DNA from: a virus
Taxonomy: Duplodnaviria; Heunggongvirae; Uroviricota; Caudoviricetes
IMG/VR virus record: IMGVR_UViG_3300029705_000018
Length of the DNA: 64,000 nucleotides
Strand: one strand, 5' to 3'
The notes beneath the pieces were generated by a model. That model had not been told where the DNA came from, ran no database searches, and saw only the letters and a list, made by a program, of their open reading frames with translations. The position numbers and the translations under genes are program-made. Below are positions 11,334 to 48,840 of the stretch, piece by piece. The first letter of the stretch is position 1. Each line of letters opens with the position of its first letter.

Positions 11334-11362
11334 TTGACTTTTCTAAATTTTTATGATATAAT
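11334..11362 (+). promoter_or_regulatory. Sigma-70/sigma-A consensus promoter TTGACT-N17-TATAAT
   Basis: TTGACT tttctaaatttttatga TATAAT. Sits between the terminator at 11278 and gene 11387. Confidence 0.7.
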
Positions 11363-11386
11363 AGATTATAAGAGAGAAAGGAGATA

Positions 11387-27258: not shown

Positions 27259-27272
27259 GGAGGAATTGAAGA

Positions 27273-28694: not shown

Positions 28695-28714
28695 TATAAG
28701 GAGGATTACTAATA

Positions 28715-30844
28715 ATGGCTGATGAAAAATTAAGTTTATTATTTAGAAGAGGTACAATCGACCAGATTTTAGCTGGCGATAATATTGTTCCTGGTGCCGT
28801 TTCTTTCTGTACTGATGAGCCTGGTATTTATCTAGATTTAACTACTGATGAAGGCGGCGGTGTTGCTAAGAGAGTCCGTGTCGGTGATTTCATCTCTGTT
28901 GCTAGCTTTGACGATATCAAGGCTGCTGCCGCAGCTGCTACAGATCCTGACAAAGCTTTCTCTGAGCATTGCTTATACTACTCTATCCAAGAGAATGCTT
29001 TGATGAAGTACAAGAAGAGCGAAAAGACTTTTGTACTTATCAATGATTTAAGTGATGTAAATGCTGATATTGCGGCCCTTGATGTTAGAATTACTACTAA
29101 TGAGGGCTATATTAAGACCTTGCAAACTAATTTAGCTACTGAGACTACTCGTGCTACTAACGCTGAAGCCGCCCTAAGAAATCGTATTGATGCTTTAACT
29201 GGCGGTGGAGATGGCTCTACTGATTCTTTAACCCAATTAAGAGCAGATTTAAATGCTGAAATTGAGGCTAGAGAAGATGGCGATGAGGCTTTACAAGGCA
29301 GTATTACCACTCTAAGTGGACGTGTTAGTACCAATGAGGGTGATATCTCTAACTTAAAGACTTTGTTTGGTCAATTACCAGATGGAGTTGCTACTAACAT
29401 TGTTGATTATGTAAATGCTAAGGTTCTTGCAGAGCAGGAACGTGCAACTGGTATTGAAAATGGCTTACGTACCGATGTAGATAAGAATACTGGTAATATC
29501 AGTACCTTAACAACTGGTTTGACTGATGAAGCTGCTCGTGCTAAGGCTGCTGAGCAAGCTAATGCGACTGCTGCTGCTAATGCTCAGTCTAAGGCTGATG
29601 AAGCTGCCACAGCTGCCGCCAATGAAGCTTCTCGTGCTATTGGAGTTGAAGGCAAGTTAAGAACACTTATTACTAACCTAACTAATACTCACACTACTGA
29701 TAAGAATGCTTTAGAGCAGTCTATTACTGGTTTAACTAGTAGCTTAGCTGCCACTACTGGTATTGCTAACGATGCTAAGACTCAGTCTGACACTAATAAA
29801 GCTGGTTTAGCTCAAGAATTGGTAGACCGTGCCACTGGCGATCAAGCTAATGCTGATGCTATTGAAGCCTTGGATGGCGAATTGGCCGAAGAAGTCGAAA
29901 GACTGGAAGGTTTGATTGGTGAGGCTGGCTCTAGTGCTGATGCTGTTCGGTTGAATTTGAATAAAGAAATTGCAGACCGTCAAGCAGCTGATCAGGCTAA
30001 TGCTCAAGCTATCGCTAATGTCGATACTGCTTTAGAACAGGAAAAGACAGCTCGTACTAATGCCGATACTGAGTTAGACGGAAAGATTACTACTGTTTCT
30101 AATGGTTTGGCTGCAACTGATGGTAAAGTTTCTACTTTAGAAAATTGGAAGACAACTGCTTCAAAACAAATTAAAGATTTAGAGGATTGGGCAACTGATA
30201 CTGATGACACAATTCAGCAGGAAGCTCAAGCCCGTCAGACTGCTATCAATAATTTAAACAATGCTTTGACTTCTGAAACTGAGGCTCGTGAGAAGAGAGA
30301 CGAAGAGTTAACTAATTTAATTAGTGCTGAAACCAAGGATCGTGAAGATGCTATTGCCGATGCTTTAACTCAGGCTGCTAATACTGCTGACGAAAAAGAC
30401 CAGGCTTTGCTAGATCTGATTAATGAGAATATGGCTGCCGCAAACTCCATGTCCTTCAAGGGTAGCGTAACCGGTTATGACAGCTTACCTGCTTCTGGAA
30501 TCCAGGCTGGTGACACTTACGTTGTAACTACTGCTTTTAGTAACGCTGAAACTGAGCCTCAGATTGGTGACTTATTGGTTGCTAGAGATGATCAGGCAGA
30601 CGGTGCTACTTTAGCTGATGCTAATGCTAAGAAGGATTTCTTCATCTGGGTTAAGACTGGTTATTCTACTTTCAATGATCCTGAATTGGTTGTTGAAGAT
30701 GCCAAGATCAAGATGAAGAGCCATTTAGGTGAAGTTTTAGGAACTGTTTCTGTTATTTCTGCTAGCGAGAATATTGTAACTAATATTTCTGGCGAAGGAA
30801 AAGACTGCACCGTAAATGTTAGCTTCGTATGGGGAACATTCTAA
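28715..30844 (+). CDS. Ala-rich coiled-coil fibre protein (fibritin or tail-fibre shaft-like), 709 aa. No TAG.
   Basis: Intact ORF. RBS AAGGAGG. A terminator follows at 30908. Confidence 0.7.
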   Translation: MADEKLSLLFRRGTIDQILAGDNIVPGAVSFCTDEPGIYLDLTTDEGGGVAKRVRVGDFISVASFDDIKAAAAAATDPDKAFSEHCLYYSIQENALMKYKKSEKTFVLINDLSDVNADIAALDVRITTNEGYIKTLQTNLATETTRATNAEAALRNRIDALTGGGDGSTDSLTQLRADLNAEIEAREDGDEALQGSITTLSGRVSTNEGDISNLKTLFGQLPDGVATNIVDYVNAKVLAEQERATGIENGLRTDVDKNTGNISTLTTGLTDEAARAKAAEQANATAAANAQSKADEAATAAANEASRAIGVEGKLRTLITNLTNTHTTDKNALEQSITGLTSSLAATTGIANDAKTQSDTNKAGLAQELVDRATGDQANADAIEALDGELAEEVERLEGLIGEAGSSADAVRLNLNKEIADRQAADQANAQAIANVDTALEQEKTARTNADTELDGKITTVSNGLAATDGKVSTLENWKTTASKQIKDLEDWATDTDDTIQQEAQARQTAINNLNNALTSETEAREKRDEELTNLISAETKDREDAIADALTQAANTADEKDQALLDLINENMAAANSMSFKGSVTGYDSLPASGIQAGDTYVVTTAFSNAETEPQIGDLLVARDDQADGATLADANAKKDFFIWVKTGYSTFNDPELVVEDAKIKMKSHLGEVLGTVSVISASENIVTNISGEGKDCTVNVSFVWGTF

Positions 30845-30907
30845 TTCGGACAGAAAAGGACAATAAATAAGTTGTTATTTTCAAATCCTTATGAAGGATG
30901 ATTATAT

Positions 30908-30946
30908 GGAGAGGATAATATAATTATCCTCTCCATTTTTTTTATA
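30908..30946 (+). terminator. Rho-independent terminator
   Basis: ggagaggataatataattatcctctcc followed by attttttttat. Confidence 0.75.
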
Positions 30947-30969
30947 TTTGGATAGAAAGGAGAGCAACA

Positions 30970-33900
30970 ATGGTAGATCAAAAAAATGTTTTACAATCTA
31001 TTGGCGCCCGTGAGACCGGCAATGTTTTTAGACCTGTAAATTGTACTGAGCAAGACATGAAGAGAAAACGTGCTATTCCAGGCTACTTATACTTCACACA
31101 AGATTCTCATAAGATTTATCAAGGCTTAGGCTCTGGTGAATACCAGATGGTCGGCGGCAGTTCTAGTATTTTCTACGGCAAATATCCTATGACCGATGAT
31201 GAAAAATACGGAACTAATGTTTTCTTTACTTTCTCTATGACTGAACATATTGAAGGAGAAAATGTTCCTGCCTTAGATTCTTTGATTTTGAATATACCTG
31301 ATGGCGGTTTTTACAGAGTATTAAATGTTGATGGTGACGCCATTGCTGTAGAAAGACTGGCTATGTCTGGCGGCGGTGGAGATAACACTGGTCCTGGCTC
31401 TAATCAAAAAGGTAATATTACTATTGAATATTACAATGGCGCTGACGTTGATACTAATATCACTATCTTAAATGGTGTTGAGCATTGGATTGAGTTTACT
31501 ATTACTGCAACTGATGAAGTTGGAGATATCTTAACTGAAACTGGTACCGCAAGTTGGGCTATTAATGGTAAGACTTATACTCAATCTGTAACTACTGGCT
31601 ATAATAAATTCAGAGTTGATGAACTTTTACCCATGGCAAAAGATGGTAACTATACTCGTATTAACTTGATGGTCTATATGAATACTGGCGGTATCACTGA
31701 TAACTATGCTAGTAAGCAATGGAATATCCAAAAAGTTGATTTGCGTTTAGAGTGGCCTTTCACTTATTCTGAAGATGAATATCGTAAAGATTCAACCTTT
31801 ACTTTAGTATTCAAACCTTTTGGTGGTATTAATTGTACCGCTCATATTACTTTTGACAATGGTTCTACTCTAGGACAAGATTACTTCGAGGAAGATATTC
31901 CTGCTAATCGCGCAAACGGTAATGAATTTACTACTCAAGCAATGAAGAGTCTGTCTTATGGTGAGCATACTTGTTCTATTTATTTGGATGCCACTATCAA
32001 TGAAGATACTGGAAAGCCAATTACTGTTAGAACACAAGAAATTGTTCATAGAATCACTTTCACCGAAGGTGGTACTTCTACAATTTTAACCGTCCCATTT
32101 GATCAAAAGACTGCTACTCAATATGACACTATTGAGATTCCATTCTTAGTTTATGACCCAGATACAACTGAATGTAGTGTTACTTTCTCTGTTAATGATA
32201 ACGTAATTTCTACTCGTAGCTACAACAGAGATAAGCAATCTATTCCTTACACAATTACCACTCATGGTACTATTAAGTTAGCTTTAGAGTCTACTAATGG
32301 TGATACTAAGAGAGAATTCAATATCACTGTTGAACCTTTGGATTTGAACAGAGAAGAAGTTAGTGGTGCAGCTTTTAGCTTAAAAGCAATTAATTTCTCT
32401 GGTAATGATGAAGTTATTAACTGGGTTGGCGGTAGTGAAACTAAGCCTGTAAGATTGAACTTCTCTGATAATTTTGACTGGCGTAATGGCGGTCTAAAAT
32501 ATGAAGTTCTTGCAGATGGAAGCATTGAAAAGTTTATCTGTGTGCGCCAGGGTACTTGGATGGAAATTGACTATAAGTTATTTGAAAATTTCAAAACTGG
32601 TACTACCGGTGGTAAGAACTTTAAGTTCTGCTTCAAGGCAGCCAACTGTTATGATTATGAAGCTCCAGTTTTAAGCTGTATCCATTATAATTATAACGAA
32701 ATTGAATTGACTGAAGATACTTATAGAACTAATAAGTATTATATCCTTTCTGGCTCTGATTATATTATTTCTAGAAATCCATTTGATGAAACTGCTACTT
32801 ATTTTGAGAAAGTAAGAGTCGCTGAAATTGGTCTAGAATTTGATGCTCAGAAAGCAACTTTCTCTTCTGCTACTTATCCTAATTTCGCAACTCAGTATTG
32901 TGAAAACTCTTATATTGAAGTTGAAACTGAAATTTGGCCCAATGTAGGAGATAGACAGCAAGGTAGTAAAACCGTTTATGGTGATCGCTACTTAATGATT
33001 TGGGTTGATGGTGTTCCTGCAGGTGCTAAGCCTTACAGCCAAAACATGGCTTTACAGCAAAATGATGCTCAAACCATTCGCATTGGTTCTGATTCTTGTG
33101 ACGTCTATGTATATACCGCAAAAGCATATGAACGTAGATTAACAAATGATGAACATTTAAATAACTTCGTTATGGATGCTCCTAGCGTTAATAAGATGCT
33201 AGAGCGCCATCGCCGCAATGATATTATTGACTCCAGTACCGGCGAAATTTCTTATGAGCTTTTGGTGCAGAAAAATCCTGGATGCCATGCTTATTTGTAT
33301 GATATTCCAGAATTAACTACTAATAAAGAAGATAAGATTGATGGCTGTACTTATTATGAGTTGATTAATGAATATGATAATTTAGGTAAGCCATTTATGA
33401 GAGCAGATAAAGTTAGAACTTATGTTCAGGGCACTTCTTCTGCCGCTTATGGTGTTGCCGCATTTAACTTACGTTCTGATTTTACTAAAAAAGGTAAAAT
33501 TTATGATAAGAATGGTAATGAAATCCCTGGATGGAGACCTTCTGATGAAGATGAATATATTGACATTGCTTGTACTAAAGTTAATGTTGCTTCTTGTGAA
33601 AATGCCAATAACGTTGTAAACGCAGAATGGTATAACAGATTCCAGCCTTACTGGGATGCTCACAGAAGAAAAGGTACTCGTTATGACAGTGATGGTAATT
33701 TATTATACAATCCTATGCGTGACTGTATGAAATTCCACTCTGGCGTTGTCTTCTTGAGAGACCACAATACACAATTCAAATATTTAGATGACAATGGAGA
33801 TCCTAAGAGTGAAATCTATTTGGAGTCCAATGCATTTATCAACCCAACTAACCCTGATTGGGAAGCAAAATATGCCGCAGAACCTTATTTTAAGATGTAT

Positions 33901-36900
33901 TCTATCGGCAATATGGGTAATGATAAGAAGAATTTGAATGTTTTCCATGATACTACCAATCCACGTGCGGCCTGTGTCGAAGTTCTAGATAACCAGAACG
34001 CAGAACACTGGATGACTATTTTCAATGAAAAAGCTTTTGAAAAAGAAGTTGTAGGTCAGGACGAAGAAGGTAAAGATATTACCAAGGGTCCATACTATGA
34101 GTTCCGTTATGGTCTTGTAGAAAATGAAGACTTGTTAGAAAATGAGCAGGGCATTACCGTAGAACAACAAGAACAAGATTTCTTGAGACTGGCTGAATGG
34201 TTCGCAATGAATGATCCAAGTCCATATGATGAGTTGTCTCACCCCAATGGATATACTGGTGAAGAATTGCCTGAACCTGTAACCTTTACTGATGATTTTG
34301 TGTTTGAAGGCTTCGATCCTCCTGGATACGAAGGCCAGCCAAATCCAACTGAAATTAGTCTAAAGGGTCAGAAAATTAGTCGTTACAAAGGTACTTATAC
34401 CCACGACACTAAAGATTATCGTATCGCTAAAATGTTGTATGAATGTGAAGATTACTTGGTTATGGATTCTGTTGTATTCCATTATTTGTATATCTCTCGT
34501 CACACCATGGTTGATAACGTTGCTAAGAACACTTTCTGGAGCACCGAAGATGGATTCCACTGGGATCTAACTAAAAACTACGATAATGATACTTCTGATG
34601 GTAATGATAATACTGGTAACTTGACTTATACATATGGTCTAGAAGTCGGTGATATTAACCCCAATGGTAAAGATGTTTTCAATGCTTCTCCTTCCGTATG
34701 GTTGAATTTCATTCATGAATTAAGAGAGGCTCAGCAATATCTATTCCAGGAGTTGAGTAAGAAGGGTGCTTGGGATGCTGATGATTATCTAGCTGAATTT
34801 AAGGCTCACCAAGATATTATTCCCGAAATTTGCTGGATTCAGGACTATGAAAGAAAATATATTCGTCCTAGACGCTTAGGTCTTGATGAAACTACTTTCT
34901 TAAGTCGTCTAGAGGGTGGTCGTAAGACTCACCAGAGAAAGCAATATGAAACTTATCAAGAGTTCTATCTGAACTCTAAATATGTTGCAAGTACTGCTTT
35001 CACAGACAGTGCTGGTATCGAATTCCGTTTCAATAAAGACGGTGATTTCGCATTGCAACCAACTGACGTTCTTCCCATGACTTTCTATATTGATTGTTAT
35101 GGCACTATCCACTTAGGTGGTCAGAAGAGAACTTCTACTCGTATTAAGAGAGGTAATTATTATAATGCCCCTGTCGGTGAATTGATTTCTGCCGCAAGCG
35201 ATGCTACTTGCTATATTTATGGTGCAAGTATGATTCAAACAATTAAAGACTTGTATAAGTTGTATCCTGGTTATGCCAAGATGACTAATGCAAGTAAATT
35301 GCGTGAATTTGAAATCGGTTCTGATATAGAAGGTTATTATAACCCTCGTTTGAGCGAAGTTAGCGTTGGTACTAACGCAATGTTACAAAAATTCCAGGCT
35401 AGAAATGTCGGTAACCCCGAGAATATTTCTATCCTAAGCTTAACTAACGCAACTCAGCTAGAAACTGTTCTAATGAGTGGTAGTGCTTTCAAAGAATTGT
35501 CTTTGGCTCCTAACGCAACTACCAAAGAACTTGAATTAAACCCATTAGCAATCTTCTCTGCAACAAATCTTCTTGATTTGGAAACTGTTAGATTGGATGA
35601 TGGAATTTATGATTCAATTCAGCAGGCTTACATTAATAACTGCCCTGGCTTAGATGTTTACACTTATCGCTTCGCAAAAGCTCCTTCTTTAACTAACTAT
35701 CAATTTACCGATGTAAATTGGGTTATTAATGATGAGACTGAAGATGATTTCGTCTTAGATGCCGATAATAATGTTGTAGCCTTTGCCGCTCTTGAAAACT
35801 TAACTGATAATAATACTGGTCCTAGACTTGGTACTACTACTGTTACTGCTTTAAGCGGTACATTAACAGTTGATAAGGCTTGCGCTATTGATGAATATAA
35901 GATTTACAAAACTTATGCAAAAACTTATCCAAACTTGATTTTCAAGTACACTGATAAAGTTGGTGCTAATTTCAACCCCGCAGTTGAATTAATTTTCTTA
36001 ACCAATGAAAATTCTGAGGAACAATATTACAGAGTATTGGGTAGCGGTGATACCTCTGGAGAAAATGCTCACAGTATTGCTTATCTAACTTCCGCACAAG
36101 GTCCTTTAGGTTTTGCTATTGGTACTCCTCACAAGGAATCTACTTCTTCTCATGATTTTGCATTTACTGGCTATTGGATTCATAAAAAGGATAATGTAAT
36201 TACTAAGTATTACAATACAAAAGATTTGCCAGATGGAGCAGTTCCAGAAGCATCTGCAATCTCCTTTGAAGATATTACTCCAACTGAAAGTATGACATTC
36301 TATCCAGAGTATATTACTACTGATAGAGAGTACAAAGTTCGCTTCTGCGACTGGGCTGGTAATATTATCTTACAGAATGGTGAAGAGTATTGGCCTGTTC
36401 CTTATGGTAAGACTTACGTCGAGGCCGCAGGTCCAATGACTAATTTCCACTATCGTGATAATACAGGTCTACAAGATCATATGAGATGGGCATTCCAAGG
36501 TTGGTCTAAGAACCAATACAAGGATAAGGAAATTAAGAATCCTGTTTATGAAGATTTGGCAACAATGGTAGTTACTAATGATGTGACTTTACATGGTCAC
36601 TATTTAACTGAAGACTGCCGTGATGTCGCTTCTAAATTGGAATATTTCAATTTCAGCGAGCGTGGTAAGATCTCAATCGCTGAGGAATATCGTGAAACTT
36701 TACAAGGTAAAATTACTTTACCTAGTGAATATGATGGTATCCCTCTAACTCAGGTAAAAGACTTTAAGAATATGGCTCGTGTTACTCACGTATTCTTCTT
36801 GAGAACCAATACTTCTTATACAAGTATTTTCCAACAAGCCTTCGAAGGAGCTTTAGCTTTGCAATATGTTGATTTGCCTATTGGAATTACTCATATCGGA

Positions 36901-37440
36901 ACATATGCTTTCAAGAGTATCAAGAGTTTAACTACTGTTGATATGAAATCTAATGTTGAAGAAATTGGTAGCCAGGCATTCTATGAAACCAACATTAACT
37001 TAACTTCTTTACCTGCTAAACTAAAACTTCTAAAGTCTGGTGCATTCATGGATTGTCGTGAATTGACTTTGTCTGCTTTACCAGCTTCTTTAGAGACTAT
37101 CGAAAGCCACGTATTTTTCTTATGTCCTAAGATTAGTATTAATCAATTGGGTGGCGGTGACGCTAAATTGAGTTATATCGGTATGCAAGCTTTTGGCGGC
37201 GGTTCTGGCGCTAATGGCACTGTTACTGATATTTACTTCGGCTCAACGGTTAACTTCATTGGTGAAAACGCCTTCAAGGGATATGGTAAAAATGGTCGTG
37301 TAAGTACTATTAGCTTTGCTAAACAAAGTGTTGAAGATTATCTAATGACTGATACAGCCTACCATACTAGTATTTCTACTATGGGATTTGATAATCCTCC
37401 TTACACTGAAGTTTGGGATTGGAAAGGAGAAGGTTCTTAA
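30970..37440 (+). CDS. Giant 2,156-aa tail-associated or adhesin protein with a C-terminal BspA-type leucine-rich-repeat region (...IGSQAFYETNINLTSLP...). No TAG.
   Basis: Single uninterrupted ORF. RBS GAAAGGAGAG. Confidence 0.8.
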   Translation: MVDQKNVLQSIGARETGNVFRPVNCTEQDMKRKRAIPGYLYFTQDSHKIYQGLGSGEYQMVGGSSSIFYGKYPMTDDEKYGTNVFFTFSMTEHIEGENVPALDSLILNIPDGGFYRVLNVDGDAIAVERLAMSGGGGDNTGPGSNQKGNITIEYYNGADVDTNITILNGVEHWIEFTITATDEVGDILTETGTASWAINGKTYTQSVTTGYNKFRVDELLPMAKDGNYTRINLMVYMNTGGITDNYASKQWNIQKVDLRLEWPFTYSEDEYRKDSTFTLVFKPFGGINCTAHITFDNGSTLGQDYFEEDIPANRANGNEFTTQAMKSLSYGEHTCSIYLDATINEDTGKPITVRTQEIVHRITFTEGGTSTILTVPFDQKTATQYDTIEIPFLVYDPDTTECSVTFSVNDNVISTRSYNRDKQSIPYTITTHGTIKLALESTNGDTKREFNITVEPLDLNREEVSGAAFSLKAINFSGNDEVINWVGGSETKPVRLNFSDNFDWRNGGLKYEVLADGSIEKFICVRQGTWMEIDYKLFENFKTGTTGGKNFKFCFKAANCYDYEAPVLSCIHYNYNEIELTEDTYRTNKYYILSGSDYIISRNPFDETATYFEKVRVAEIGLEFDAQKATFSSATYPNFATQYCENSYIEVETEIWPNVGDRQQGSKTVYGDRYLMIWVDGVPAGAKPYSQNMALQQNDAQTIRIGSDSCDVYVYTAKAYERRLTNDEHLNNFVMDAPSVNKMLERHRRNDIIDSSTGEISYELLVQKNPGCHAYLYDIPELTTNKEDKIDGCTYYELINEYDNLGKPFMRADKVRTYVQGTSSAAYGVAAFNLRSDFTKKGKIYDKNGNEIPGWRPSDEDEYIDIACTKVNVASCENANNVVNAEWYNRFQPYWDAHRRKGTRYDSDGNLLYNPMRDCMKFHSGVVFLRDHNTQFKYLDDNGDPKSEIYLESNAFINPTNPDWEAKYAAEPYFKMYSIGNMGNDKKNLNVFHDTTNPRAACVEVLDNQNAEHWMTIFNEKAFEKEVVGQDEEGKDITKGPYYEFRYGLVENEDLLENEQGITVEQQEQDFLRLAEWFAMNDPSPYDELSHPNGYTGEELPEPVTFTDDFVFEGFDPPGYEGQPNPTEISLKGQKISRYKGTYTHDTKDYRIAKMLYECEDYLVMDSVVFHYLYISRHTMVDNVAKNTFWSTEDGFHWDLTKNYDNDTSDGNDNTGNLTYTYGLEVGDINPNGKDVFNASPSVWLNFIHELREAQQYLFQELSKKGAWDADDYLAEFKAHQDIIPEICWIQDYERKYIRPRRLGLDETTFLSRLEGGRKTHQRKQYETYQEFYLNSKYVASTAFTDSAGIEFRFNKDGDFALQPTDVLPMTFYIDCYGTIHLGGQKRTSTRIKRGNYYNAPVGELISAASDATCYIYGASMIQTIKDLYKLYPGYAKMTNASKLREFEIGSDIEGYYNPRLSEVSVGTNAMLQKFQARNVGNPENISILSLTNATQLETVLMSGSAFKELSLAPNATTKELELNPLAIFSATNLLDLETVRLDDGIYDSIQQAYINNCPGLDVYTYRFAKAPSLTNYQFTDVNWVINDETEDDFVLDADNNVVAFAALENLTDNNTGPRLGTTTVTALSGTLTVDKACAIDEYKIYKTYAKTYPNLIFKYTDKVGANFNPAVELIFLTNENSEEQYYRVLGSGDTSGENAHSIAYLTSAQGPLGFAIGTPHKESTSSHDFAFTGYWIHKKDNVITKYYNTKDLPDGAVPEASAISFEDITPTESMTFYPEYITTDREYKVRFCDWAGNIILQNGEEYWPVPYGKTYVEAAGPMTNFHYRDNTGLQDHMRWAFQGWSKNQYKDKEIKNPVYEDLATMVVTNDVTLHGHYLTEDCRDVASKLEYFNFSERGKISIAEEYRETLQGKITLPSEYDGIPLTQVKDFKNMARVTHVFFLRTNTSYTSIFQQAFEGALALQYVDLPIGITHIGTYAFKSIKSLTTVDMKSNVEEIGSQAFYETNINLTSLPAKLKLLKSGAFMDCRELTLSALPASLETIESHVFFLCPKISINQLGGGDAKLSYIGMQAFGGGSGANGTVTDIYFGSTVNFIGENAFKGYGKNGRVSTISFAKQSVEDYLMTDTAYHTSISTMGFDNPPYTEVWDWKGEGS

Positions 37441-37652
37441 TGACTAAAGATAGAAAATACAGATACCTTGGCCGCAATGGTATTTTAGATACTAAGGTCC
37501 TTCTAGATGGTATCAATCATATCAATATCGTAACTATCAATGCTGATCCCGGCAAGATTTTAACTAATGGTGAGCGTACTCAGTACAGCGTCACTGTTGA
37601 AGAGGCCGAGGAACATAAGTGGAGAGAAATTACGGACAATACCAAAAAATAA
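37440..37652 (+). CDS. Small hypothetical protein of about 70 aa
   Basis: ATG overlaps the upstream TAA (TAATG). ORF-track entry 37413..37652. Confidence 0.45.
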   Translation: MTKDRKYRYLGRNGILDTKVLLDGINHINIVTINADPGKILTNGERTQYSVTVEEAEEHKWREITDNTKK

Positions 37653-37728
37653 GGTTATTTGATTTTTCAGTTCTAGGGAAGGGAAATTCCTTCCCTAGAA
37701 CAATATTATAAAGAAAGGAAGATATAAC

Positions 37729-39741
37729 GTGATTACAGTCTATAATAAAGATTATAAAGACCAATATACCGTTCTATTCCAAGACGCATATAACGTTTTA
37801 TTGGATATGCAGGCTAAAGATCCTCTTGGTGTAAAGATTAATCAGTCTGTTTTGGATAAAGGCAAAATCAGTTCTCTTGAAGAGTATTTTGCTCATATTG
37901 GTTATTTAGCAGATTATCACACTGAAAATATTAGAAATAATCCACCTTCTAATGTTGCATATCAAAACTCTGCTAAGTTCTTGATGCTTCCTATGGATGA
38001 AAAATACGATGTCAAGTCTGGCTGTTTTTACATTGACCTAAATACTAGAAATATTCAGGTTCCTGATATTTATAGTAAATATGGTGTTAGTGTTACTGGT
38101 GATCAGTTAGCCGAGACTTTGATGTTTAAGGTTCCTCGCTATTTCGATTATACTGACTTGGCTTCTACTGAAATTTATGTTCAGTGGACTAACCCAGCAG
38201 GAGACGAAGGTGCTTCTCGTATTGTCTTAGTTGACTTTGAAGCAGAAGAAGGTTATCTATTATTTGGTTGGCCTTTGACCAGTAAGGTTACTGTTGAAGG
38301 TAAAAATCCTTTGAAGTTCTCTGTTCGTTTCTTCGTAAGAAATGAAGAGAAAGAAATTCAGTACAGCTTAAATACTTTGGCTAGTTCTGTTATGATTAAG
38401 CAAGCTCTATATACTCATTTCAATGCTGACCTAGACATTGATGATCCATCTTTGTTGTTTGCGGCCGCAGTTGAAAATGGCGTTGACTCCAACATGACTC
38501 TACCTCAGATTCCTGTCTTCTTCTATGATTGGAAATTGGGTAATGACGAAGGAAAAGCTTTCTTAAAGAATGATGCAATTAAGCTATATGCTAGCGGTGC
38601 CACTGCTGATGCAGGTCAGTTGTGCTACAAGTGGTATTATACTCCTCGATTCATCGAAAATAATGTCGCTGTAACTAAAGATACTGAAGAAGTTTTCAAG
38701 GCTTACGCTGATGTAGATACTATCTTCAAGCCCACAAATGATACTGAAAAAGAAGCTGGCAAGACTTATTATGTTGAAGAAATCGAAGCTGAAACTGGCA
38801 ATCAGATTTATACTGTTTTCCTAGGCGATGCTTTTGAAGAGCCAGAAGAGGGAGAAGCTGCTCCTGTTTATTATGAGCAGGTAAGTGTTTATACCATTTT
38901 GGCTGTTGATGATGATGCTGAGGATTTGGGTGCTTCTACTGCGCTAGCACCTAATAAGAGATATTGGCCTCACGTCACCGGTGAATACAAGCTAACTTTG
39001 AACAATCAAGTTGGTAGTAGCAAATCTGCAGAGAGCGTTGATTCTTTGAAGTGCGTAATTCCTTGTGTTGAAAAAGTTGAGTTCACCGCAGATTTACCTA
39101 AGAACAAAGTTCTATCTACTATTGGCGAAGGCGAAGAGACTGTTAGCCAGGCTATTTTAACTGTTACTGTTGATGCAAATGACGGTGCTGAAAAGAGCTA
39201 TGTATGGTATGAAGCTGCTTCTTCTGACGCTGAATATGTTGAAGTTCCCAATGCTTCTAATGCTAGTATGACTGCTACTCAGCCAGGCTGGTATAAAGTT
39301 AAGGCTATCGGTACTTTGAACAGAGAGAGTATGTGGAAAGAAAGTTCTGAATGTAAGGTTACTTATCCTGCTGAAGCTCCTGAAATCGTCAAGTATCTAG
39401 TTGATGGTATCGAGTATCCTATTACAGATGATGACCCAACTTTAGAGAATGTTCCTGGCTTGAATACTCCTATTACCTTCAAGATTGAAATTGAAGAAAT
39501 GAATGAGTTCCAGACTGACGGTGTCACTTACAAGTGGTTCCGCAATACTCCTAACCAGAATGGTACTCCTATTAAGGATTCTGATCTAGATATTATTAGT
39601 GTAAATGGCAGTGAAATTACTGTTAAGCTATTAGCTAATAATGACTTGCCTGTTAATATTGCCTTCTATTACTGTGAAATCACTAATACTCTAGCAGGAG
39701 AAGAAAAGAAAACTACTTCTAAGGTATTCCAGATTTCTTAA
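37729..39741 (+). CDS. Structural or tail protein, 670 aa. GTG start. No TAG.
   Basis: Intact ORF. RBS AAAGGAAG. Confidence 0.7.
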   Translation: MITVYNKDYKDQYTVLFQDAYNVLLDMQAKDPLGVKINQSVLDKGKISSLEEYFAHIGYLADYHTENIRNNPPSNVAYQNSAKFLMLPMDEKYDVKSGCFYIDLNTRNIQVPDIYSKYGVSVTGDQLAETLMFKVPRYFDYTDLASTEIYVQWTNPAGDEGASRIVLVDFEAEEGYLLFGWPLTSKVTVEGKNPLKFSVRFFVRNEEKEIQYSLNTLASSVMIKQALYTHFNADLDIDDPSLLFAAAVENGVDSNMTLPQIPVFFYDWKLGNDEGKAFLKNDAIKLYASGATADAGQLCYKWYYTPRFIENNVAVTKDTEEVFKAYADVDTIFKPTNDTEKEAGKTYYVEEIEAETGNQIYTVFLGDAFEEPEEGEAAPVYYEQVSVYTILAVDDDAEDLGASTALAPNKRYWPHVTGEYKLTLNNQVGSSKSAESVDSLKCVIPCVEKVEFTADLPKNKVLSTIGEGEETVSQAILTVTVDANDGAEKSYVWYEAASSDAEYVEVPNASNASMTATQPGWYKVKAIGTLNRESMWKESSECKVTYPAEAPEIVKYLVDGIEYPITDDDPTLENVPGLNTPITFKIEIEEMNEFQTDGVTYKWFRNTPNQNGTPIKDSDLDIISVNGSEITVKLLANNDLPVNIAFYYCEITNTLAGEEKKTTSKVFQIS

Positions 39742-39759
39742 TAAAGGAGGTCAATAATT

Positions 39760-40407
39760 ATGTCACAGTTAAGTCAAACTGCTATTGACAAATTATATGA
39801 AATCCAAAGAAGTAATCCTCCAAAGATGGCTTCCATTCCATATGCGGAGGATTACATTGAAGTTGATTGGCGTACTCGCTCAATTGGAGAACGTGATATC
39901 CTAAGCACTGCTCGTGACCATAAATCCGAAAATTTATACTTTATCATGGATAGATATTGGGATTATATGGACTTGTCTACCACCACCTGTGTTATTTCTT
40001 ATAAGACTTATCCCGCAGACCCCCAGAAGCAAGGTGTGACTGGTTTATATGCCGTTCCATATTACGACATTTATACTCATAAAGCTACTCCTGGCACTTT
40101 GGAAAAGGATAAGATGGTTATTCCATGGTGTATTGATGGACGAGTAACTCAAGACGAAGCAGAAGTAGAATATGCCATTCGTTTTTATCGTGTTGATGCT
40201 GATGGAAAGAAAATCCTCTATAATATCAGCACCATGCCAAATGTTGGCAAAGTCCTATATGGACTAAACGTTCAGCCAAACGGCCTTGAAGACGCCGGAG
40301 ATCTAGCTGGTGATTATGATATTGCTAGTAGTATGTATGAACATTTTACTGACGAAATCAGAAAATTAAATCAGCAAGATATTTTTTGGATTGAATTTGT
40401 TTCATAA
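39760..40407 (+). CDS. Hypothetical structural protein, 215 aa
   Basis: Intact ORF with RBS AAGGAGG. A terminator follows at 40415. Confidence 0.7.
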   Translation: MSQLSQTAIDKLYEIQRSNPPKMASIPYAEDYIEVDWRTRSIGERDILSTARDHKSENLYFIMDRYWDYMDLSTTTCVISYKTYPADPQKQGVTGLYAVPYYDIYTHKATPGTLEKDKMVIPWCIDGRVTQDEAEVEYAIRFYRVDADGKKILYNISTMPNVGKVLYGLNVQPNGLEDAGDLAGDYDIASSMYEHFTDEIRKLNQQDIFWIEFVS

Positions 40408-44892: not shown

Positions 44893-45300
44893 ATGGACTG
44901 GATGGTTATGTTATATCAAATTTTTGAACTTTGCGTTATTCCTCTCTTGGGTGTATTGACTATGTACTTAGTTCAATTCATTAAAATGAAGAGCCAAGAA
45001 ATCGCAGATAAGACTGATAGTGAATTAGCAGATAAGTACATTCAAATGCTTGCTGATACTATCACTACTTGCGTTATCGCAACTAATCAGACTTATGTTG
45101 AATCTTTGAAGAAGCAAGGTAAGTTTGATGCAGAAGCTCAGAAGGAAGCTTTCAATTTGACTTATAATGCAGTTATGTCTGTATTAACTGATGAAGCTAA
45201 GCATTATTTGGCTTCCATTTATGGCGACTTGACCGCCTACATTACTAGTCGTATTGAGGCTGAGGTTAATGTAAGTAAGATTGTTCCTGTTACTGAGTAA
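44893..45300 (+). CDS. Small membrane protein of 135 aa with an N-terminal transmembrane helix. Holin candidate.
   Basis: Intact ORF. Hydrophobic N-terminus MDWMVMLYQIFELCVIPLLGVLTMYLV. A strong terminator follows. Confidence 0.5.
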   Translation: MDWMVMLYQIFELCVIPLLGVLTMYLVQFIKMKSQEIADKTDSELADKYIQMLADTITTCVIATNQTYVESLKKQGKFDAEAQKEAFNLTYNAVMSVLTDEAKHYLASIYGDLTAYITSRIEAEVNVSKIVPVTE

Positions 45301-45310
45301 TTGCGGAGAT

Positions 45311-45353
45311 ACCCGAAAAATACCTAAAAAGTATTTTTCGGGTATTTTTTTTT
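45311..45353 (+). terminator. Rho-independent terminator after the holin-like gene
   Basis: acccgaaaaatacctaaaaagtatttttcgggt followed by a 9-T run. Confidence 0.75.
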
Positions 45354-45363
45354 GTCATTCGCA

Positions 45364-45496
45364 GGACCTCAAAAAGTTATGTCCCGGTATTCTTACGGTC
45401 CATTTTTGGTTATTTTTCATTCCAGTCGCGGTCCATTTTCGGTTAGGGTTCGGTCCTCGTTTGGACAAATTAGGGTAATTTTTCGGTCCTAATTTT
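45364..45496 (+). repeat. Array of four direct CGGTCC(A/T)...TTT 13-14-mers plus one inverted GGACC, in a non-coding stretch
   Basis: cggtccatttttgg at 45397, cggtccattttcgg at 45429, cggtcctcgtttgg at 45451, cggtcctaatttt at 45484 and ggacc at 45364. Confidence 0.6.
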
Positions 45497-45554
45497 CATA
45501 AAGCTATGAGGGGATTGGATAAAATATTTTTTGTATGGAGAGGAGACCTTACAT

Positions 45555-45989
45555 ATGTACTCAAACTATAATTATTATCCACAACAACCCTAGCAAGTCG
45601 CCCAATAGCAACCAGTGTACCAACCATTGTCTTACTTACGACAGGCGCCGCCGCAAGCAGGACTGAAAGGACGCTTGGTAGCATCATTGGAAGAGGCCCG
45701 TGCAACCTCTATTGACTTTGATGGTTCTGTATTCTACTTCCCAGATTTAGCGAACAGACGAATCTACACAAAACAAATAAATATGGATGGCACCGCATCA
45801 CTGTGTGTGTATGAATTAAGGGAAATGCCCGTTTAGAGAGAAGAGAGCGGTTCTGTTCCATCCGTTGAGAAATTTGTAACGAGAGAAGAGTTTGAGCAGG
45901 TCCTGGCGCAACTACAAATGCTCCAGAAGCCAACCGAGCCGGCCGTATCTGCCCCCGCAAAAGAAAAAGTAGAATTAATGTCATTCTAA
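45555..45989 (+). CDS. Hypothetical protein of about 144 aa with a Q/Y-rich N-terminus (YNYYPQQP-Q-QVAQ-Q-QPVYQ) and 3 in-frame TAGs at 45591, 45606 and 45834.
   Basis: ATG at 45555 after GGAGAGGAG. Frame 0 is continuous to the TAA at 45987-89. ORF-track piece 45615..45836 is in the same frame. Confidence 0.55.
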
Positions 45990-45999
45990 GGAGGTATGA

Positions 46000-46254
46000 A
46001 TGATGTATCCAGTAAACCCAAATAAATTAATCCAAATGATTAAATCCGGGCAAAATCCTCAGCAATTGATGTTATCAATTTTGAAAGGACAAGCCTATGA
46101 TAATCCCCTCGGAAAAAATCTCCTAAATTTAGCTCAATCTGGTCGCACTGTCGAATTAGAGAAAGTAATTCGCAACCTTTACGCCCAGTAGGGCGGTCAA
46201 AATTTCGACCAGGAGTTCGAAGCCTTTAAACGTGCATTAGGCTACAACACTTAA
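46000..46254 (+). CDS. Hypothetical protein of about 84 aa with 1 in-frame TAG at 46189
   Basis: ORF 46000..46191 continues in frame to the TAA at 46252-54. Confidence 0.5.
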
Positions 46255-46275
46255 AATTTAAGGAGGAAAAAAATT

Positions 46276-46992
46276 ATGTTCAATGGAAAAGGTTATAATT
46301 TATCTGATATCGCTGCTGTAACCCGTGGAAGTGGTACTGGTTTCGGTGGAGATGGCGACGGCGCATGGTGGCTGTTACTGTTATTCCTGTTTGCGGGATG
46401 GGGTAATGGTGGCTATGGCGGCGGCCTTGGCGCAGGTAACGCTCGCGACGCTGTTTCTTATGGCTTTGATATCAACAATCTAGAAAATGGAATCCGTGGA
46501 CTAGAGCATGGTCTATGCGATGGTTTCTATGACATGAACACTTCTTTGCTAACTGGTTTTGGTAATGTTACTATGGGTAATATGCAGAACACTAACGCCA
46601 TTATGGGCCGTTTGTGTGATATGTCCGCAGAGCAAGCTGCTTGTTGCTGCGAAACTCAGCGCTTGATTGAGAGAGGTTTGTGCGAAGTCAACTATAATAT
46701 CTTGACTCAATCTAACGCAACTAATACTAATATTGCCAATGCCGCGAGAGATATTATTGAAAACAATAATAATGGTGTTCGCTCTATCTTAGACTTCTTG
46801 ACTCAGGATAAGATTGCTACTTTGCAGGCTGAAAATCAGGCTTTGCGCTTGACCGCTTCTCAGCAAGCTCAGAACGCTTTCTTGATCGACCAGTTAGGAA
46901 CTAAGGCTCCTATTCCTGCATACATGGTAGCTAATCCATATGCTAGCTATGGTTGTGGTATGAACTACTATGCTGGATGTGGCTGCAACTAA
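46276..46992 (+). CDS. Gly/Cys-rich hypothetical protein of 238 aa with one hydrophobic segment (WWLLLLFLFAGW)
   Basis: Intact ORF with RBS AAGGAGG. GC content is visibly higher than in the flanking DNA. Confidence 0.65.
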   Translation: MFNGKGYNLSDIAAVTRGSGTGFGGDGDGAWWLLLLFLFAGWGNGGYGGGLGAGNARDAVSYGFDINNLENGIRGLEHGLCDGFYDMNTSLLTGFGNVTMGNMQNTNAIMGRLCDMSAEQAACCCETQRLIERGLCEVNYNILTQSNATNTNIANAARDIIENNNNGVRSILDFLTQDKIATLQAENQALRLTASQQAQNAFLIDQLGTKAPIPAYMVANPYASYGCGMNYYAGCGCN

Positions 46993-47011
46993 TATCTAAG
47001 GAGGAAAGTAT

Positions 47012-47434
47012 ATGGAAATTATTGCTAATGCTGTTCAAACAGTTCCCGCAAATCAGAATGTTTATTTCACTGATTCTGTTACTTCTGGAAATTATTCTAT
47101 CGAGCATCGTGATGGTAGTGGATTGGTGACTCTTCGCGGAGTCACCAATACTCAGTGCCGCGCCCGTTTTAGAGTACATTTCGGCGCAAATGTCGCGATT
47201 GCAGAAGGTGGCACCGTCGGACCAATTTCCTTAGCTATCTCTTTGGATGGTGAAGCGGTTCCAGCTACAATTATGACTGTCACCCCTGCCGCAGTTGGAG
47301 ATTTCTTCAATGTGAGCGCATCTATCTTTATTGATATTCCAAAAGGATGCTGCTCTCATGTGGCCGTGAAGAATATTTCTACTCAGCCAATTGATGTACA
47401 AAATGCAAATCTAATTGCTGAACGTTCTGCGTAA
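47012..47434 (+). CDS. Small 140-aa protein resembling the BclA C-terminal (C1q/TNF-like jelly-roll) domain
   Basis: Intact ORF with RBS AAGGAGG. Pattern NQNVYFTD...GNYSIEH..GSG.VTL..G.Y...F is typical of exosporium BclA_C-like domains. The call rests on motif recall only. Confidence 0.6.
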   Translation: MEIIANAVQTVPANQNVYFTDSVTSGNYSIEHRDGSGLVTLRGVTNTQCRARFRVHFGANVAIAEGGTVGPISLAISLDGEAVPATIMTVTPAAVGDFFNVSASIFIDIPKGCCSHVAVKNISTQPIDVQNANLIAERSA

Positions 47435-47445
47435 GGAGGGATAGT

Positions 47446-48027
47446 ATGGACCACGAAAGATTAAAACACATGAAAGAAACTTTAATGTGTGCTGTTGAAG
47501 TACAATTATGTGATTTGGGTGAAGTAGATACTAAAGAGCTTGGAGAAGCTATTGATATGATTAAAGATTTAGAAGAGGCAATCTACTATTGCACCGTTAC
47601 AGAAGCTATGAACAACTCTTCACACGAAATGGAGTTTGAAATGAAAAAAGGCGGCCATCACCAGTAGGAAAATGGTGACAGCCGCATGTATTATGACAGA
47701 AATCGTAGAAGTGATGGTACATTCTATGCTGACAATGATAATTCTTCTTCTTCTGGAATGAATAGTTCTAATGGAAGAAATTATTACGATGACCCAGGTA
47801 TGTGGCGCGATGAGCGCGAAGGCCGCAGTTATAATAGTCGTAGAATGTATATGGAAGCCAAGGATATGAAACGAGATAAAGCTACTCAATTGCGTGAGTT
47901 AGAAAAGTATATGCAAGAGCTATCTCTGGATATTACCGAAATGATTGCGGATGCTTCTCCAGAAGAAAAAGCATATCTTGAAAAGAAGATAACCGCATTG
48001 GCTTCTAAAATTGGTCAAATGAAATGA
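47446..48027 (+). CDS. Hypothetical protein of about 193 aa with 1 in-frame TAG at 47665. TGA stop.
   Basis: ORF pieces 47446 and 47686 are both in frame 1 and joined by a TAG. RBS AAGGAGG. Confidence 0.55.
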
Positions 48028-48335
48028 TTATAAATGGCGTGCGCTGGCGGGTCCGGTTGGTCTCGCCAGCCCATCCAATGCTACTTACGCCTTGGAGAAC
48101 TCACGCTCTTGGAGTTTGTGATAAAGTCACATAGACTATATGTATAGACAAGACTCTTTCCCCTCAACAACTAAAAGAAGTCTTATGTCATGAATTAGTT
48201 CATGCTTTTATGTTTAGCTATGCTGTGGATTTATCATATGATGAAGAGGAAATGGTAGCAGAGCTTATGACTGAATATGGAGAAGATATATTAGAACGGA
48301 CAAACGCGATTTATAATGGTATAAAAATGAAATAA
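48024..48335 (+). CDS. HExxH zincin-like small protein of 103 aa (SprT/ImmA-IrrE-like motif ...ICIDKTLSPQQLKEVLCHELVHAF...) with 1 in-frame TAG at 48132. Not present in the ORF track.
   Basis: ATG 48024 overlaps the upstream TGA (ATGA). Frame 0 is continuous to the TAA at 48333-35 and was hand-translated codon by codon. Confidence 0.5.
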
Positions 48336-48380
48336 GGGTCGATTATGAATAATCATAATCGACCCCTTATTTTTTTTTGG
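48331..48380. terminator. Bidirectional terminator at the junction where the plus and minus modules converge
   Basis: aataagggtcgattatga...tcataatcgaccccttatt hairpin flanked by a T-run on plus and an A-run on minus. Confidence 0.65.
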
Positions 48381-48381
48381 T

Positions 48382-48840
48382 TTAATCAACAACGTCGTCA
48401 TTATCAACTTTTAAGTCTAAAGCCATAGCCTTATCATAATAGATTTTAGCTTGACCGTTGCCACCCAAACCAGTATATAATTTATAGAACTCGGTTAACT
48501 GTTCCATCTGTGCAGGAGTAATATATCCCTGAGCTAAGAATCCTTTGCATAATTGTACTAAGCGGAAACGATAAGAAGCAATAATCAGATTCATATGAGT
48601 CTTCTCGATGTTCTCAGTTTCTCTGATATATTTTCTTAGTTCCTCTAATTCCTGATATACTGGTTCTAAATGGATCTCAATGGTGTCCTCGACATGTTGT
48701 CTCTCTTGGGCGGCGGCTAATTCTCTAGCGTTTCTTAATTCACGATTCAATTCACGAGTTTTGAACTTAGCATAACCAATTACACCGGCACTGATAAGAG
48801 CAAACAAAATCTCCATACCCCACTCAGCTAATAATTCCAT
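48382..48840 (-). CDS. Hypothetical protein of 152 aa with an N-terminal transmembrane helix followed by coiled coil
   Basis: Intact ORF. TAA stop. RBS AAAGGGGG. Confidence 0.6.
   Translation of the reverse strand: MELLAEWGMEILFALISAGVIGYAKFKTRELNRELRNARELAAAQERQHVEDTIEIHLEPVYQELEELRKYIRETENIEKTHMNLIIASYRFRLVQLCKGFLAQGYITPAQMEQLTEFYKLYTGLGGNGQAKIYYDKAMALDLKVDNDDVVD

Follow-up and report, generated by a model that had tools for sequence, protein, structure and literature searches.

Proteins in which a shaft carries a TNF-like knob are known from BclA of the Bacillus exosporium, the adenovirus fibre and PRD1 P5, and for the exosporium type the described structures include the C-terminal domain (CTD) of BclA, the F-BclA tip and ExsFA/BxpB of the exosporium and endospore appendages (PDB 1wck, 9h38 and 7r1m). 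In terms of genomic behaviour, the closest described systems are the morons of lambdoid phages and the genes of the Firmicutes post-lysis conversion slot. In recoded phages, codons such as TAG mark late structural and lysis genes, the latter being the most strongly recoded class (bioRxiv 10.1101/2021.08.26.457843). Here, we analysed positions 45555-48335 of a 64,000-nucleotide (nt) stretch of DNA (hereafter, the window) from the IMG/VR record IMGVR_UViG_3300029705_000018 (Caudoviricetes), which represents a large (~200 kb), TAG-recoded phage known from metagenome assemblies alone. The region encodes six genes (g1 to g6), of which the first five form a dispensable accessory cassette that includes a predicted stand-alone jelly-roll protein (g4); tentatively, we favour an optional fibre on the virion as the destination of the products. 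No described phage TNF- or BclA-like module was found in the literature, and the cassette can be described as a multi-gene late moron with a stand-alone TNF-like protein, as outlined by the structural model.

A dispensable five-gene unit

The extent of the unit was defined by natural variants. A set of 80 loci was collected with m152, the convergent gene downstream of g6, as bait; 72 of them carry the cassette, six are ended by the contig end, and two are informative (L171 and L148). In L171 (9438-10260), the holin gene is followed by g6 and then m152, with nothing between holin and g6. The flanks of L171 and L045 are colinear at 74-87% nucleotide identity, and L045 (6286-9133) has 2848 extra bases that correspond exactly to the regulatory region plus g1-g5. 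Given this clean 2.85-kb gap, the mobile unit consists of g1-g5 and their upstream region, and g6 belongs to the backbone. In L148 (9450-11092), g1 and the C-terminal half of g5 are kept, and g2-g4 together with the N-terminal half of g5 are lost. Thus, g1-g5 (~45350-48027) are a dispensable accessory indel unit, and by homology with L045 the regulatory region of the window would lie inside the indel. Treating all six genes as a single unit was rejected, since g6 stays beside the holin gene in L171 without g1-g5. Moreover, the Gln-codon usage of g6 resembles that of the holin gene and m152, unlike that of g3 and g4, and these three genes constitute a conserved backbone around the cassette. Because of the deletion variants L171 and L148, an essential virion role for the cassette is excluded. 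Its position also differs between genomes and is therefore not fixed in a structural operon.

The features of the region and its borders are the following:

44893-45300, + strand: holin-like gene (phrog_13712 'holin', E 8.8e-35), a backbone neighbour outside the cassette
45305-45349, + strand: predicted intrinsic terminator, a 19-bp stem followed by a T run, which would close the upstream late operon
45350-45554, + strand: putative regulatory region of the cassette, with CGGTCC repeats, a promoter-like box and a ribosome-binding site (RBS)
45555-45989, + strand: g1, 144 amino acids (aa), 3 in-frame TAG; core cassette gene
46000-46254, + strand: g2, 84 aa, 1 in-frame TAG
46276-46992, + strand: g3, 238 aa, 0 in-frame TAG
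47012-47434, + strand: g4, 140 aa, 0 in-frame TAG
47446-48027, + strand: g5, 193 aa, 1 in-frame TAG; last gene of the indel unit
48024-48335, + strand: g6, 103 aa, 1 in-frame TAG, HELVH motif; backbone gene, probably co-transcribed with the cassette here
48336-48365, both strands: predicted bidirectional terminator (stems of 13 and 15 bp, T runs), shared with the convergent m152
48382-48840, - strand: m152 (phrog_4105 and phrog_4257, unknown function), convergent backbone neighbour

The two predicted terminators, the first of which contains a perfect 15-nt inverted repeat, enclose all six genes. The initial annotation had suggested a moron cluster of six genes, and the terminator-like hairpins, a putative regulatory sequence of its own, the distinct composition and the clean presence/absence pattern, which are reminiscent of lambdoid morons and the Firmicutes conversion slot, agree with such a nature, with the correction that the unit comprises g1-g5. 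In temperate relatives, the cassette occupies the classic post-lysis slot, next to the integrase or the prophage end, as lysogenic-conversion genes do. Unlike a typical moron, however, it has five genes instead of one, is fixed in most members of a large lineage, is TAG-recoded (implying late lytic expression) and encodes products with no obvious secretion signal.

The six + strand genes are recovered when only TAA and TGA end open reading frames (ORFs) and TAG counts as sense; with standard-code ORF calling the region is broken into fragments. From g1 to g6 there are 3, 1, 0, 0, 1 and 1 in-frame TAG codons, so that recoding in four of the six genes (g1, g2, g5 and g6), as originally reported, stands. 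Alignment columns that bear TAG mostly have Gln in the other cassette homologues, and TAG is probably read as Gln in the cassette. Across the window, TAG is a sense codon in many late genes, with 36 in-frame occurrences in one 3129-aa protein. No tRNA gene, and hence no suppressor tRNA, was found within the 64,000-nt window, and the Rfam search in and around the cassette returned no RNA family, only two chance-level microRNA matches.

For comparison, a g4-baited set of 89 loci was assembled from annotated phage records, encoding contigs, species-representative genomes and IMG/VR. The order g1-g6 is strictly syntenic in ~60 large-phage loci, at 36-100% protein identity and in most cases between the same holin gene and the same convergent m152; the exact g3 sequence occurs on contigs of up to ~206 kb (the one examined has 203 kb). 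The GC content of the region (0.417) exceeds that of the whole window (0.364) and of the upstream (0.353) and downstream (0.387) flanks, as noted previously, and lies at the 99.4th percentile among windows of the same size; the excess is genuine but modest. Third-position GC content of the cassette genes (0.30-0.43) is like that of the - strand replication genes and unlike that of the structural genes, in which it is low. In distinct relatives, the cassette is above one flank in 31 of 32 cases and above the other in all 32, and its GC content follows that of the backbone, from 0.33 up to 0.575 in the Vescimonas prophage discussed below. Since the excess recurs in nearly all relatives and scales with the backbone, we rejected it as a mark of recent foreign import and regard it as a standing property, consistent with the Gly/Ala/Pro/Arg-rich products and some codon bias. 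With ~60 syntenic relatives, the idea of a recently imported "island" is thus not upheld.

A stand-alone BclA-like jelly roll

An AlphaFold2 monomer prediction for g4, based on 40 homologues, yielded an all-beta model with a predicted local distance difference test (pLDDT) score of 86.6 and a predicted template modelling (pTM) score of 0.80. The model is a ten-strand jelly roll that can be superposed on the BclA CTD or TNF, and by fold comparison its nearest solved structures are the Bacillus exosporium proteins, to which g4 has an identity of only 12-20%. At the structural level, therefore, the BclA-C/TNF-like fold that had been assigned to the protein starting at 47012 was recovered. Sequence comparisons did not reach any of these families: g4 has no Pfam match at E<=1, BclA_C included, no match in NCBIfam, and its profile (40 sequences) finds nothing among PDB sequences at E<=10.

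According to this model, g4 is a stand-alone TNF/C1q-like jelly-roll protein of the BclA-CTD/ExsFA type. It begins straight at the first beta strand, with neither an N-terminal anchoring motif nor a collagen-like GXX stalk, and contains an invariant Cys-Cys pair at residues 113-114. A search of its profile against 1.84 billion cluster representatives gave 804 family clusters, and the best 150 of these measure 78-196 aa, with no long fusions and no collagen-like stalk. These sizes argue for a protein that acts alone and not for the tip domain of a collagen-like fibre. In BFVD, similar stand-alone proteins of 130-142 aa are found on gut sipho-, myo- and podovirus contigs, one of them labelled 'BclA protein'. 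In contrast to the Bacillus exosporium proteins, g4 is phage-encoded, is always located beside g3 (present in 88 of the 89 g4 loci, adjacent to or overlapping g4), and occurs also in hosts of taxa that do not form spores. Thus, neither a BclA-like fold nor a coat-like composition is proof of a spore function, and the present case warns against that conclusion.

g3 and the other products

The partner of g4, g3, contains 14% Gly and 9 Cys and ends in GCGCN, in agreement with the composition and ending described initially. The membrane location given with them is less firm: the Gly-rich N-terminus includes the segment WWLLLLFLF, but with only ~13 residues and a 19-residue Kyte-Doolittle maximum of 1.14, the hydrophobic stretch is not long enough to call a transmembrane helix with confidence, and a membrane protein is therefore no more than plausible. 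Conserved features are an invariant CCCE motif and a Pro/Cys-rich tail (PxPAYxVxNP...CC...GCGC). The AlphaFold2 model is poor (pLDDT 47.7), with two long helices and a disordered Cys tail predicted. g3 matches phrog_16490 (E 7e-34), and its profile found nothing significant in PDB; ~17 influenza HA2 chains appeared at E 0.4-1.4 and were dismissed as coiled-coil noise. The N-terminus YSLADIAAATGG was also considered as a double-glycine leader for a C39-type peptidase and rejected, as the motif is only partly conserved; the window copy has LSDIAAVTRGSG, and another subgroup FTMPVAPM.

No other cassette gene is as variable or as mosaic as g3. Its identity to the window copy is either 81-100% or 36-53%, independently of the neighbours; for instance, it is 89% identical to the copy in L056, while the adjoining genes are at 44-64%, from which the core pair g3-g4 seems to have been exchanged more often than the other cassette genes. 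Such mosaic identity patterns are typical of interaction-specificity genes. As a separate observation, the g3 homologue of L083 (IMGVR_UViG_3300021426_000542, 5932-7864) is split at the CCCE motif by a ~1.3-kb insert with a 326-aa ORF, which, read from sequence alone, is a candidate GIY-YIG-type homing endonuclease. A match of the insert to the group I intron model RF00028 (E 1.3e-8) reaches 41 bits, short of the gathering score of 50.

Among the first 35 residues of g1 are 10 Q, 6 Y and 6 P, and this low-complexity N-terminus is followed by a small globular domain of ~60 aa, an FVTxEEF helix and a charged tail. g1 matches phrog_21718 (E 2.8e-12) and is detected by profile in 80 of the 89 g4 loci; it has no Pfam match, and its profile finds nothing significant in PDB. 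g2 is a small helical, Q/N/M-rich protein with a conserved NPQQ motif, and g5 has conserved acidic helical domains at both termini, separated by a disordered centre rich in R/S/Y/N/D. Counterparts of both occur in small phages: a ~70-aa protein at the position of g2 (cluster C4) and shorter versions of g5 (C9 and C13).

The backbone gene g6 encodes a minimal HExxH zincin with HELVH at residues 56-60, as first proposed. It passes PF06114 (Peptidase_M78) marginally, with 23.4 bits at a cut-off of 22; matches to DUF6782 and SprT-like models are below threshold, and nothing significant was found among PDB sequences. The motif CHE[LI]xHA...EE is invariant in the relatives. Like ImmA/IrrE (Peptidase_M78), g6 has the HExxH motif followed by a conserved acidic pair. 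However, it comprises only 103 aa and lies in the backbone between holin and a transmembrane/coiled-coil gene, and no XRE/ImmR-type repressor stands beside it, since its neighbours g5, holin and m152 have no helix-turn-helix match.

For the six proteins together, Pfam gave a match for g6 only, NCBIfam nothing meaningful, the PADLOC defence models no match at E<=1, and PHROGs only families of 'unknown function'. At 90% identity, at least 7856 clusters were counted for g3, at least 7967 for g4 and 4738 for g5, all of them unnamed. With thousands of clusters in gut and rumen metagenomes, and without a Pfam domain or functional name for g3, g4 and g5, the cassette is among the commoner unexplained gene sets of Clostridia-infecting phages.

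Timing and regulation

In-frame TAG codons occur in the cassette at 6.6 per 1000 codons, compared with 5.1 and 8.2 in recoded late genes and 0.42 in the - strand replication genes. This late-gene density places the cassette with the late lytic genes. In relatives, up to 21 TAG codons per cassette were counted, and g3 has the lowest TAG share in the cassette, with CAG preferred. In recoded carriers, TAG usage thus argues for translation in the late lytic phase and not in the prophage, and a role in lysogeny finds no backing in this phage.

Elsewhere in the window, a block of six consecutive late-strand genes at 25771-40407, with 4724 codons in total and a 2156-aa LRR_5 protein among its products, is free of in-frame TAG. 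CAG and CAA are about equally used in this block; the flanking late genes, with 5-8 TAG per 1000 codons, show a strong preference for CAA. A recent exchange with a standard-code phage could account for the block, as could expression ahead of the code switch.

Upstream of g1, four direct CGGTCC repeats start at 45396, 45429, 45451 and 45484, with spacings of 33, 22 and 33 bp, all multiples of 11; they account for four of only nine CGGTCC sites in the window (both strands). The repeats are followed on the 3' side by a promoter-like box, TTTTCATAAAGCTATGAGGGG (45493-45513), and then the RBS. All lineages have the same layout upstream of g1, consisting of a terminator, direct repeats and a conserved box, TTTTCATA(T/A)A..(A/T)ATGARRGG, but the repeat type is lineage-specific (CGGTCC here, TTGGCAAAA or GTGAG elsewhere). 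The repeats look like operator sites, and a constant layout with lineage-specific repeats suggests control by a co-evolving DNA-binding protein. A simple sigma-70 scan found no strong promoter upstream of g1. Two late operons of the window are preceded by near-consensus extended -10 promoters of the form TTGAC-N17-TGATATAAT (1160-1190 and 11337-11368), and the lack of such a promoter at the cassette suggests that it is controlled separately from other late operons.

Distribution among unrelated phages and hosts

In small phages and prophages, profile searches recovered the core of the cassette, consisting of g1, g3 and g4 plus a small g2-like and a shorter g5-like gene, usually directly after the lysis genes. 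It follows the endolysin gene in Butyrivibrio phage Ceridwen, lies between lysis genes and integrase in Dulem virus 33, and forms the extreme end of the Vescimonas fastidiosa MM35 prophage, where it is preceded by holin and amidase and borders on host genes. In L085 and L087, a phrog_199 holin stands directly 3' of the g5 counterpart. Other positions are after the integrase (Dulem virus 39), within the head module, between portal/minor capsid genes and the major capsid gene (Dulem virus 35), and, in several IMG/VR contigs, between a phrog_4247 'virion structural protein' and a holin-terminase-portal series in which the terminase and portal labels rest on size and order. Homologues of g1, g3 and g4 are, respectively, QHJ73766, QHJ73768 and QHJ73769 in Ceridwen and WP_212821117, WP_212821119 and WP_212821121 in Vescimonas MM35. 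Judged by these homologies, the cassette is a very widespread, uncharacterised accessory set of gut and rumen Clostridia phages.

Its occurrence is not limited to spore-forming hosts, as exemplified by Ceridwen, whose host Butyrivibrio fibrisolvens is non-spore-forming, and by the V. fastidiosa prophage. For Ceridwen, only lytic growth has been seen, on B. fibrisolvens (PMC7372960), and the type strain and species of Vescimonas are described as non-spore-forming (PMC11334427). These carriers argue against a spore-specific role. Two of the carriers are available in culture: Ceridwen on Butyrivibrio strain DSM 3071 and the prophage in V. fastidiosa MM35.

g6 is absent from the small phages except Dulem virus 39. 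Wherever it is absent, apart from that same virus, g1 is accompanied by a ~125-aa gene (phrog_3754) with conserved Cys, His and Asp, which lies directly 5' of g1 in 21 small-phage loci (e.g., L001, 4068-4445). Its near-invariant motifs, NPNP..GDC..RA and H(V)V..DG.YYD.WDSG, suggest a papain-like Cys-His-Asp enzyme; the protein has no match in Pfam. In the Vescimonas locus (L091, V. fastidiosa pMM35_01), the stretch between amidase and g1 (17463-18412) is an unannotated gap, which holds a small ORF that resembles sigma-70 region 4 below threshold (E 7.8e-5), a terminator-like hairpin and then an unannotated copy of the 125-aa Cys-His-Asp gene.

Proposed function and alternatives

The favoured reading, to which we give a probability of about 0.3, is that g3 and g4 build an optional adhesion fibre on the virion, with stalk and knob supplied by separate proteins. 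The products would be made late in lytic infection and, as no N-terminal export signal was seen on reading the sequences apart from a possible g3 anchor, would be assembled in the cytoplasm. g3 would serve as a long helical stalk, anchored by its Gly-rich hydrophobic N-terminus, with its Cys/Pro-rich C-terminal tail docking a g4 trimer as a distal knob and its hypervariable middle carrying the lineage-specific variation. g1, g2 and g5, with their low-complexity Q/Y or R/S/Y segments, could be adaptor, chaperone or matrix partners, and the assembly would most likely end on the virion surface as an adhesion or decoration fibre. In favour of this proposal we count the discrete, dispensable and late-class nature of the unit, the helices and disordered Cys tail predicted for g3, the pairing of g3 and g4 in 88 of the 89 loci, the mosaic nature of g3, the head-module site in Dulem virus 35 and the phrog_4247 neighbour. 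The pair would be a split version of the shaft plus TNF-like knob of BclA, the adenovirus fibre and PRD1 P5: in contrast to PRD1 P5, the adenovirus fibre, the tail fibres of cyanophages A-1(L)/A4 and the Sf6 needle knob, shaft and knob would be separate polypeptides here, and the hydrophobic Gly-rich N-terminus of g3 has no counterpart in the PRD1 P5, adenovirus, cyanophage A-1(L)/A4 and Sf6 fibres. Optional virion fibres would be relevant for the host range or mucus adherence of gut phages.

Several points weigh against a fibre, above all the cassette's portability and the hydrophobic segment in g3. The cassette is found in very different phages (a Ceridwen-type siphovirus, the Vescimonas prophage and phages of ~200 kb), a spread that is easier to reconcile with a self-sufficient or host-directed function than with docking on one virion, and a hydrophobic segment such as WWLLLLFLF is uncommon in decoration proteins and points to a membrane. 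A set of five genes is large for a decoration, their codon usage is unlike that of the other late structural genes, and the repeated linkage to holin could mean a lysis-related role. The g3 model has low confidence and its contact with g4 is pure inference; in the literature, no virion proteome of a sequenced, cultured carrier phage was found.

The holin linkage points to an accessory of lysis or egress, which is possible but which we consider doubtful. A membrane-anchored, coiled-coil g3 would work with the holin neighbourhood at the end of infection, with g4 and the low-complexity proteins as partners, and would affect the timing of lysis, open up an envelope layer or cover receptors on debris that would otherwise trap progeny; if so, the cassette would be a new player in the lysis of thin-walled Clostridia. 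The placement exactly between holin and g6/m152 here and in at least 32 relatives fits this, as do the sites after endolysin or holin in Ceridwen, Dulem virus 33 and the Vescimonas prophage, the phrog_199 holin directly after the g5 counterpart in L085 and L087, and the strong recoding of lysis genes in such phages. In addition, the short hydrophobic N-terminus, two long helices and conserved Cys of g3 resemble an i-spanin in outline. Linkage is, however, weak evidence, as the space after the lysis genes is a known permissive site for morons, and two carriers, Dulem virus 35 (head module) and Dulem virus 39 (3' of the integrase), have the cassette apart from their lysis genes. No PHROG lysis family is matched by the cassette, the hydrophobic stretch of g3 is too short for a confident transmembrane helix, and we know of no lysis protein with a TNF-like fold. 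Portability and dispensability, together with an accessory slot at a prophage end, would also suit a host-directed conflict module (superinfection exclusion, or defence or counter-defence directed at other mobile elements), with g3 as membrane effector or blocker and g4 as sensor or binder. To this can be added the hypervariable, mosaic g3, a small protease-like companion (g6 here, the 125-aa Cys/His/Asp gene in small phages), the dedicated operator-like repeat array and the sub-threshold sigma-70 region-4-like ORF (E 7.8e-5) upstream of the Vescimonas cassette. We nevertheless judge such a module unlikely: genes for exclusion or counter-defence are usually active in early infection or during lysogeny, whereas in recoded phages the TAG codons of g1, g2 and g5 allow these proteins only after the code switch, i.e., late. 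None of the six proteins has a PADLOC match, and no enzymatic effector domain was detected.

Two further explanations are modelled on spores. One is a phage-made, exosporium- or coat-like matrix or fibre layer, cross-linkable and self-assembling, that would be produced late in infection from a g4 trimer, the Cys-rich helical g3 and the Tyr/Gln- and Arg/Ser/Tyr-rich g1 and g5. Processed by a small enzyme of protease or transglutaminase type (g6, or the Cys-His-Asp protein of small phages), it would coat or embed virions or the lysing cell and protect or retain them in the gut. Bacterial viruses would then have their own equivalent of spore coats or occlusion bodies; we regard this explanation as improbable. 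The other, proposed in the initial annotation and in our view very improbable, is a moron that alters the spore coat or exosporium (or the cell surface) of the host with BclA/ExsFA-like and coat-like proteins made in the mother cell. Exosporium proteins are indeed the nearest solved structures to g4, products without signal peptides would be expected if they are assembled in the cytoplasm of the mother cell, the proteins have coat-like compositions (rich in Q/Y, Gly, Cys and R/S/Y), and the genomic behaviour is moron-like. Against it, none of the six proteins matches a coat or exosporium family in Pfam or NCBIfam, including those of the ExsY/CotY, GerQ and CdeC type; the core is kept by the lytic Ceridwen of B. 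fibrisolvens (PMC7372960) and by a Vescimonas prophage, the type species of that genus being described as non-spore-forming (PMC11334427); and the use of TAG links translation to the late phase of lytic infection, in a large phage whose window contains no lysogeny genes. We thus see no basis for a spore-directed function, and a role at the surface of the living host cell likewise lacks an export signal, the possible g3 anchor excepted.

Flanking genes

The holin-like gene lies directly 5' of g1 in 32 related loci and m152 was found in 49. Farther downstream, the window encodes a RuvC-like resolvase, dUTPase, NrdG/NrdD and PolIII-alpha. No canonical endolysin was recognised among those window proteins that were searched. 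m152 consists of a hydrophobic N-terminal helix, a coiled coil and a C-terminal domain with the conserved LIxSYRFRL...LGGNGQA, and may be a lysis-associated membrane protein. In relatives, TAG makes up 23% of the Gln-type codons of m152, and the holin gene is likewise heavily recoded.

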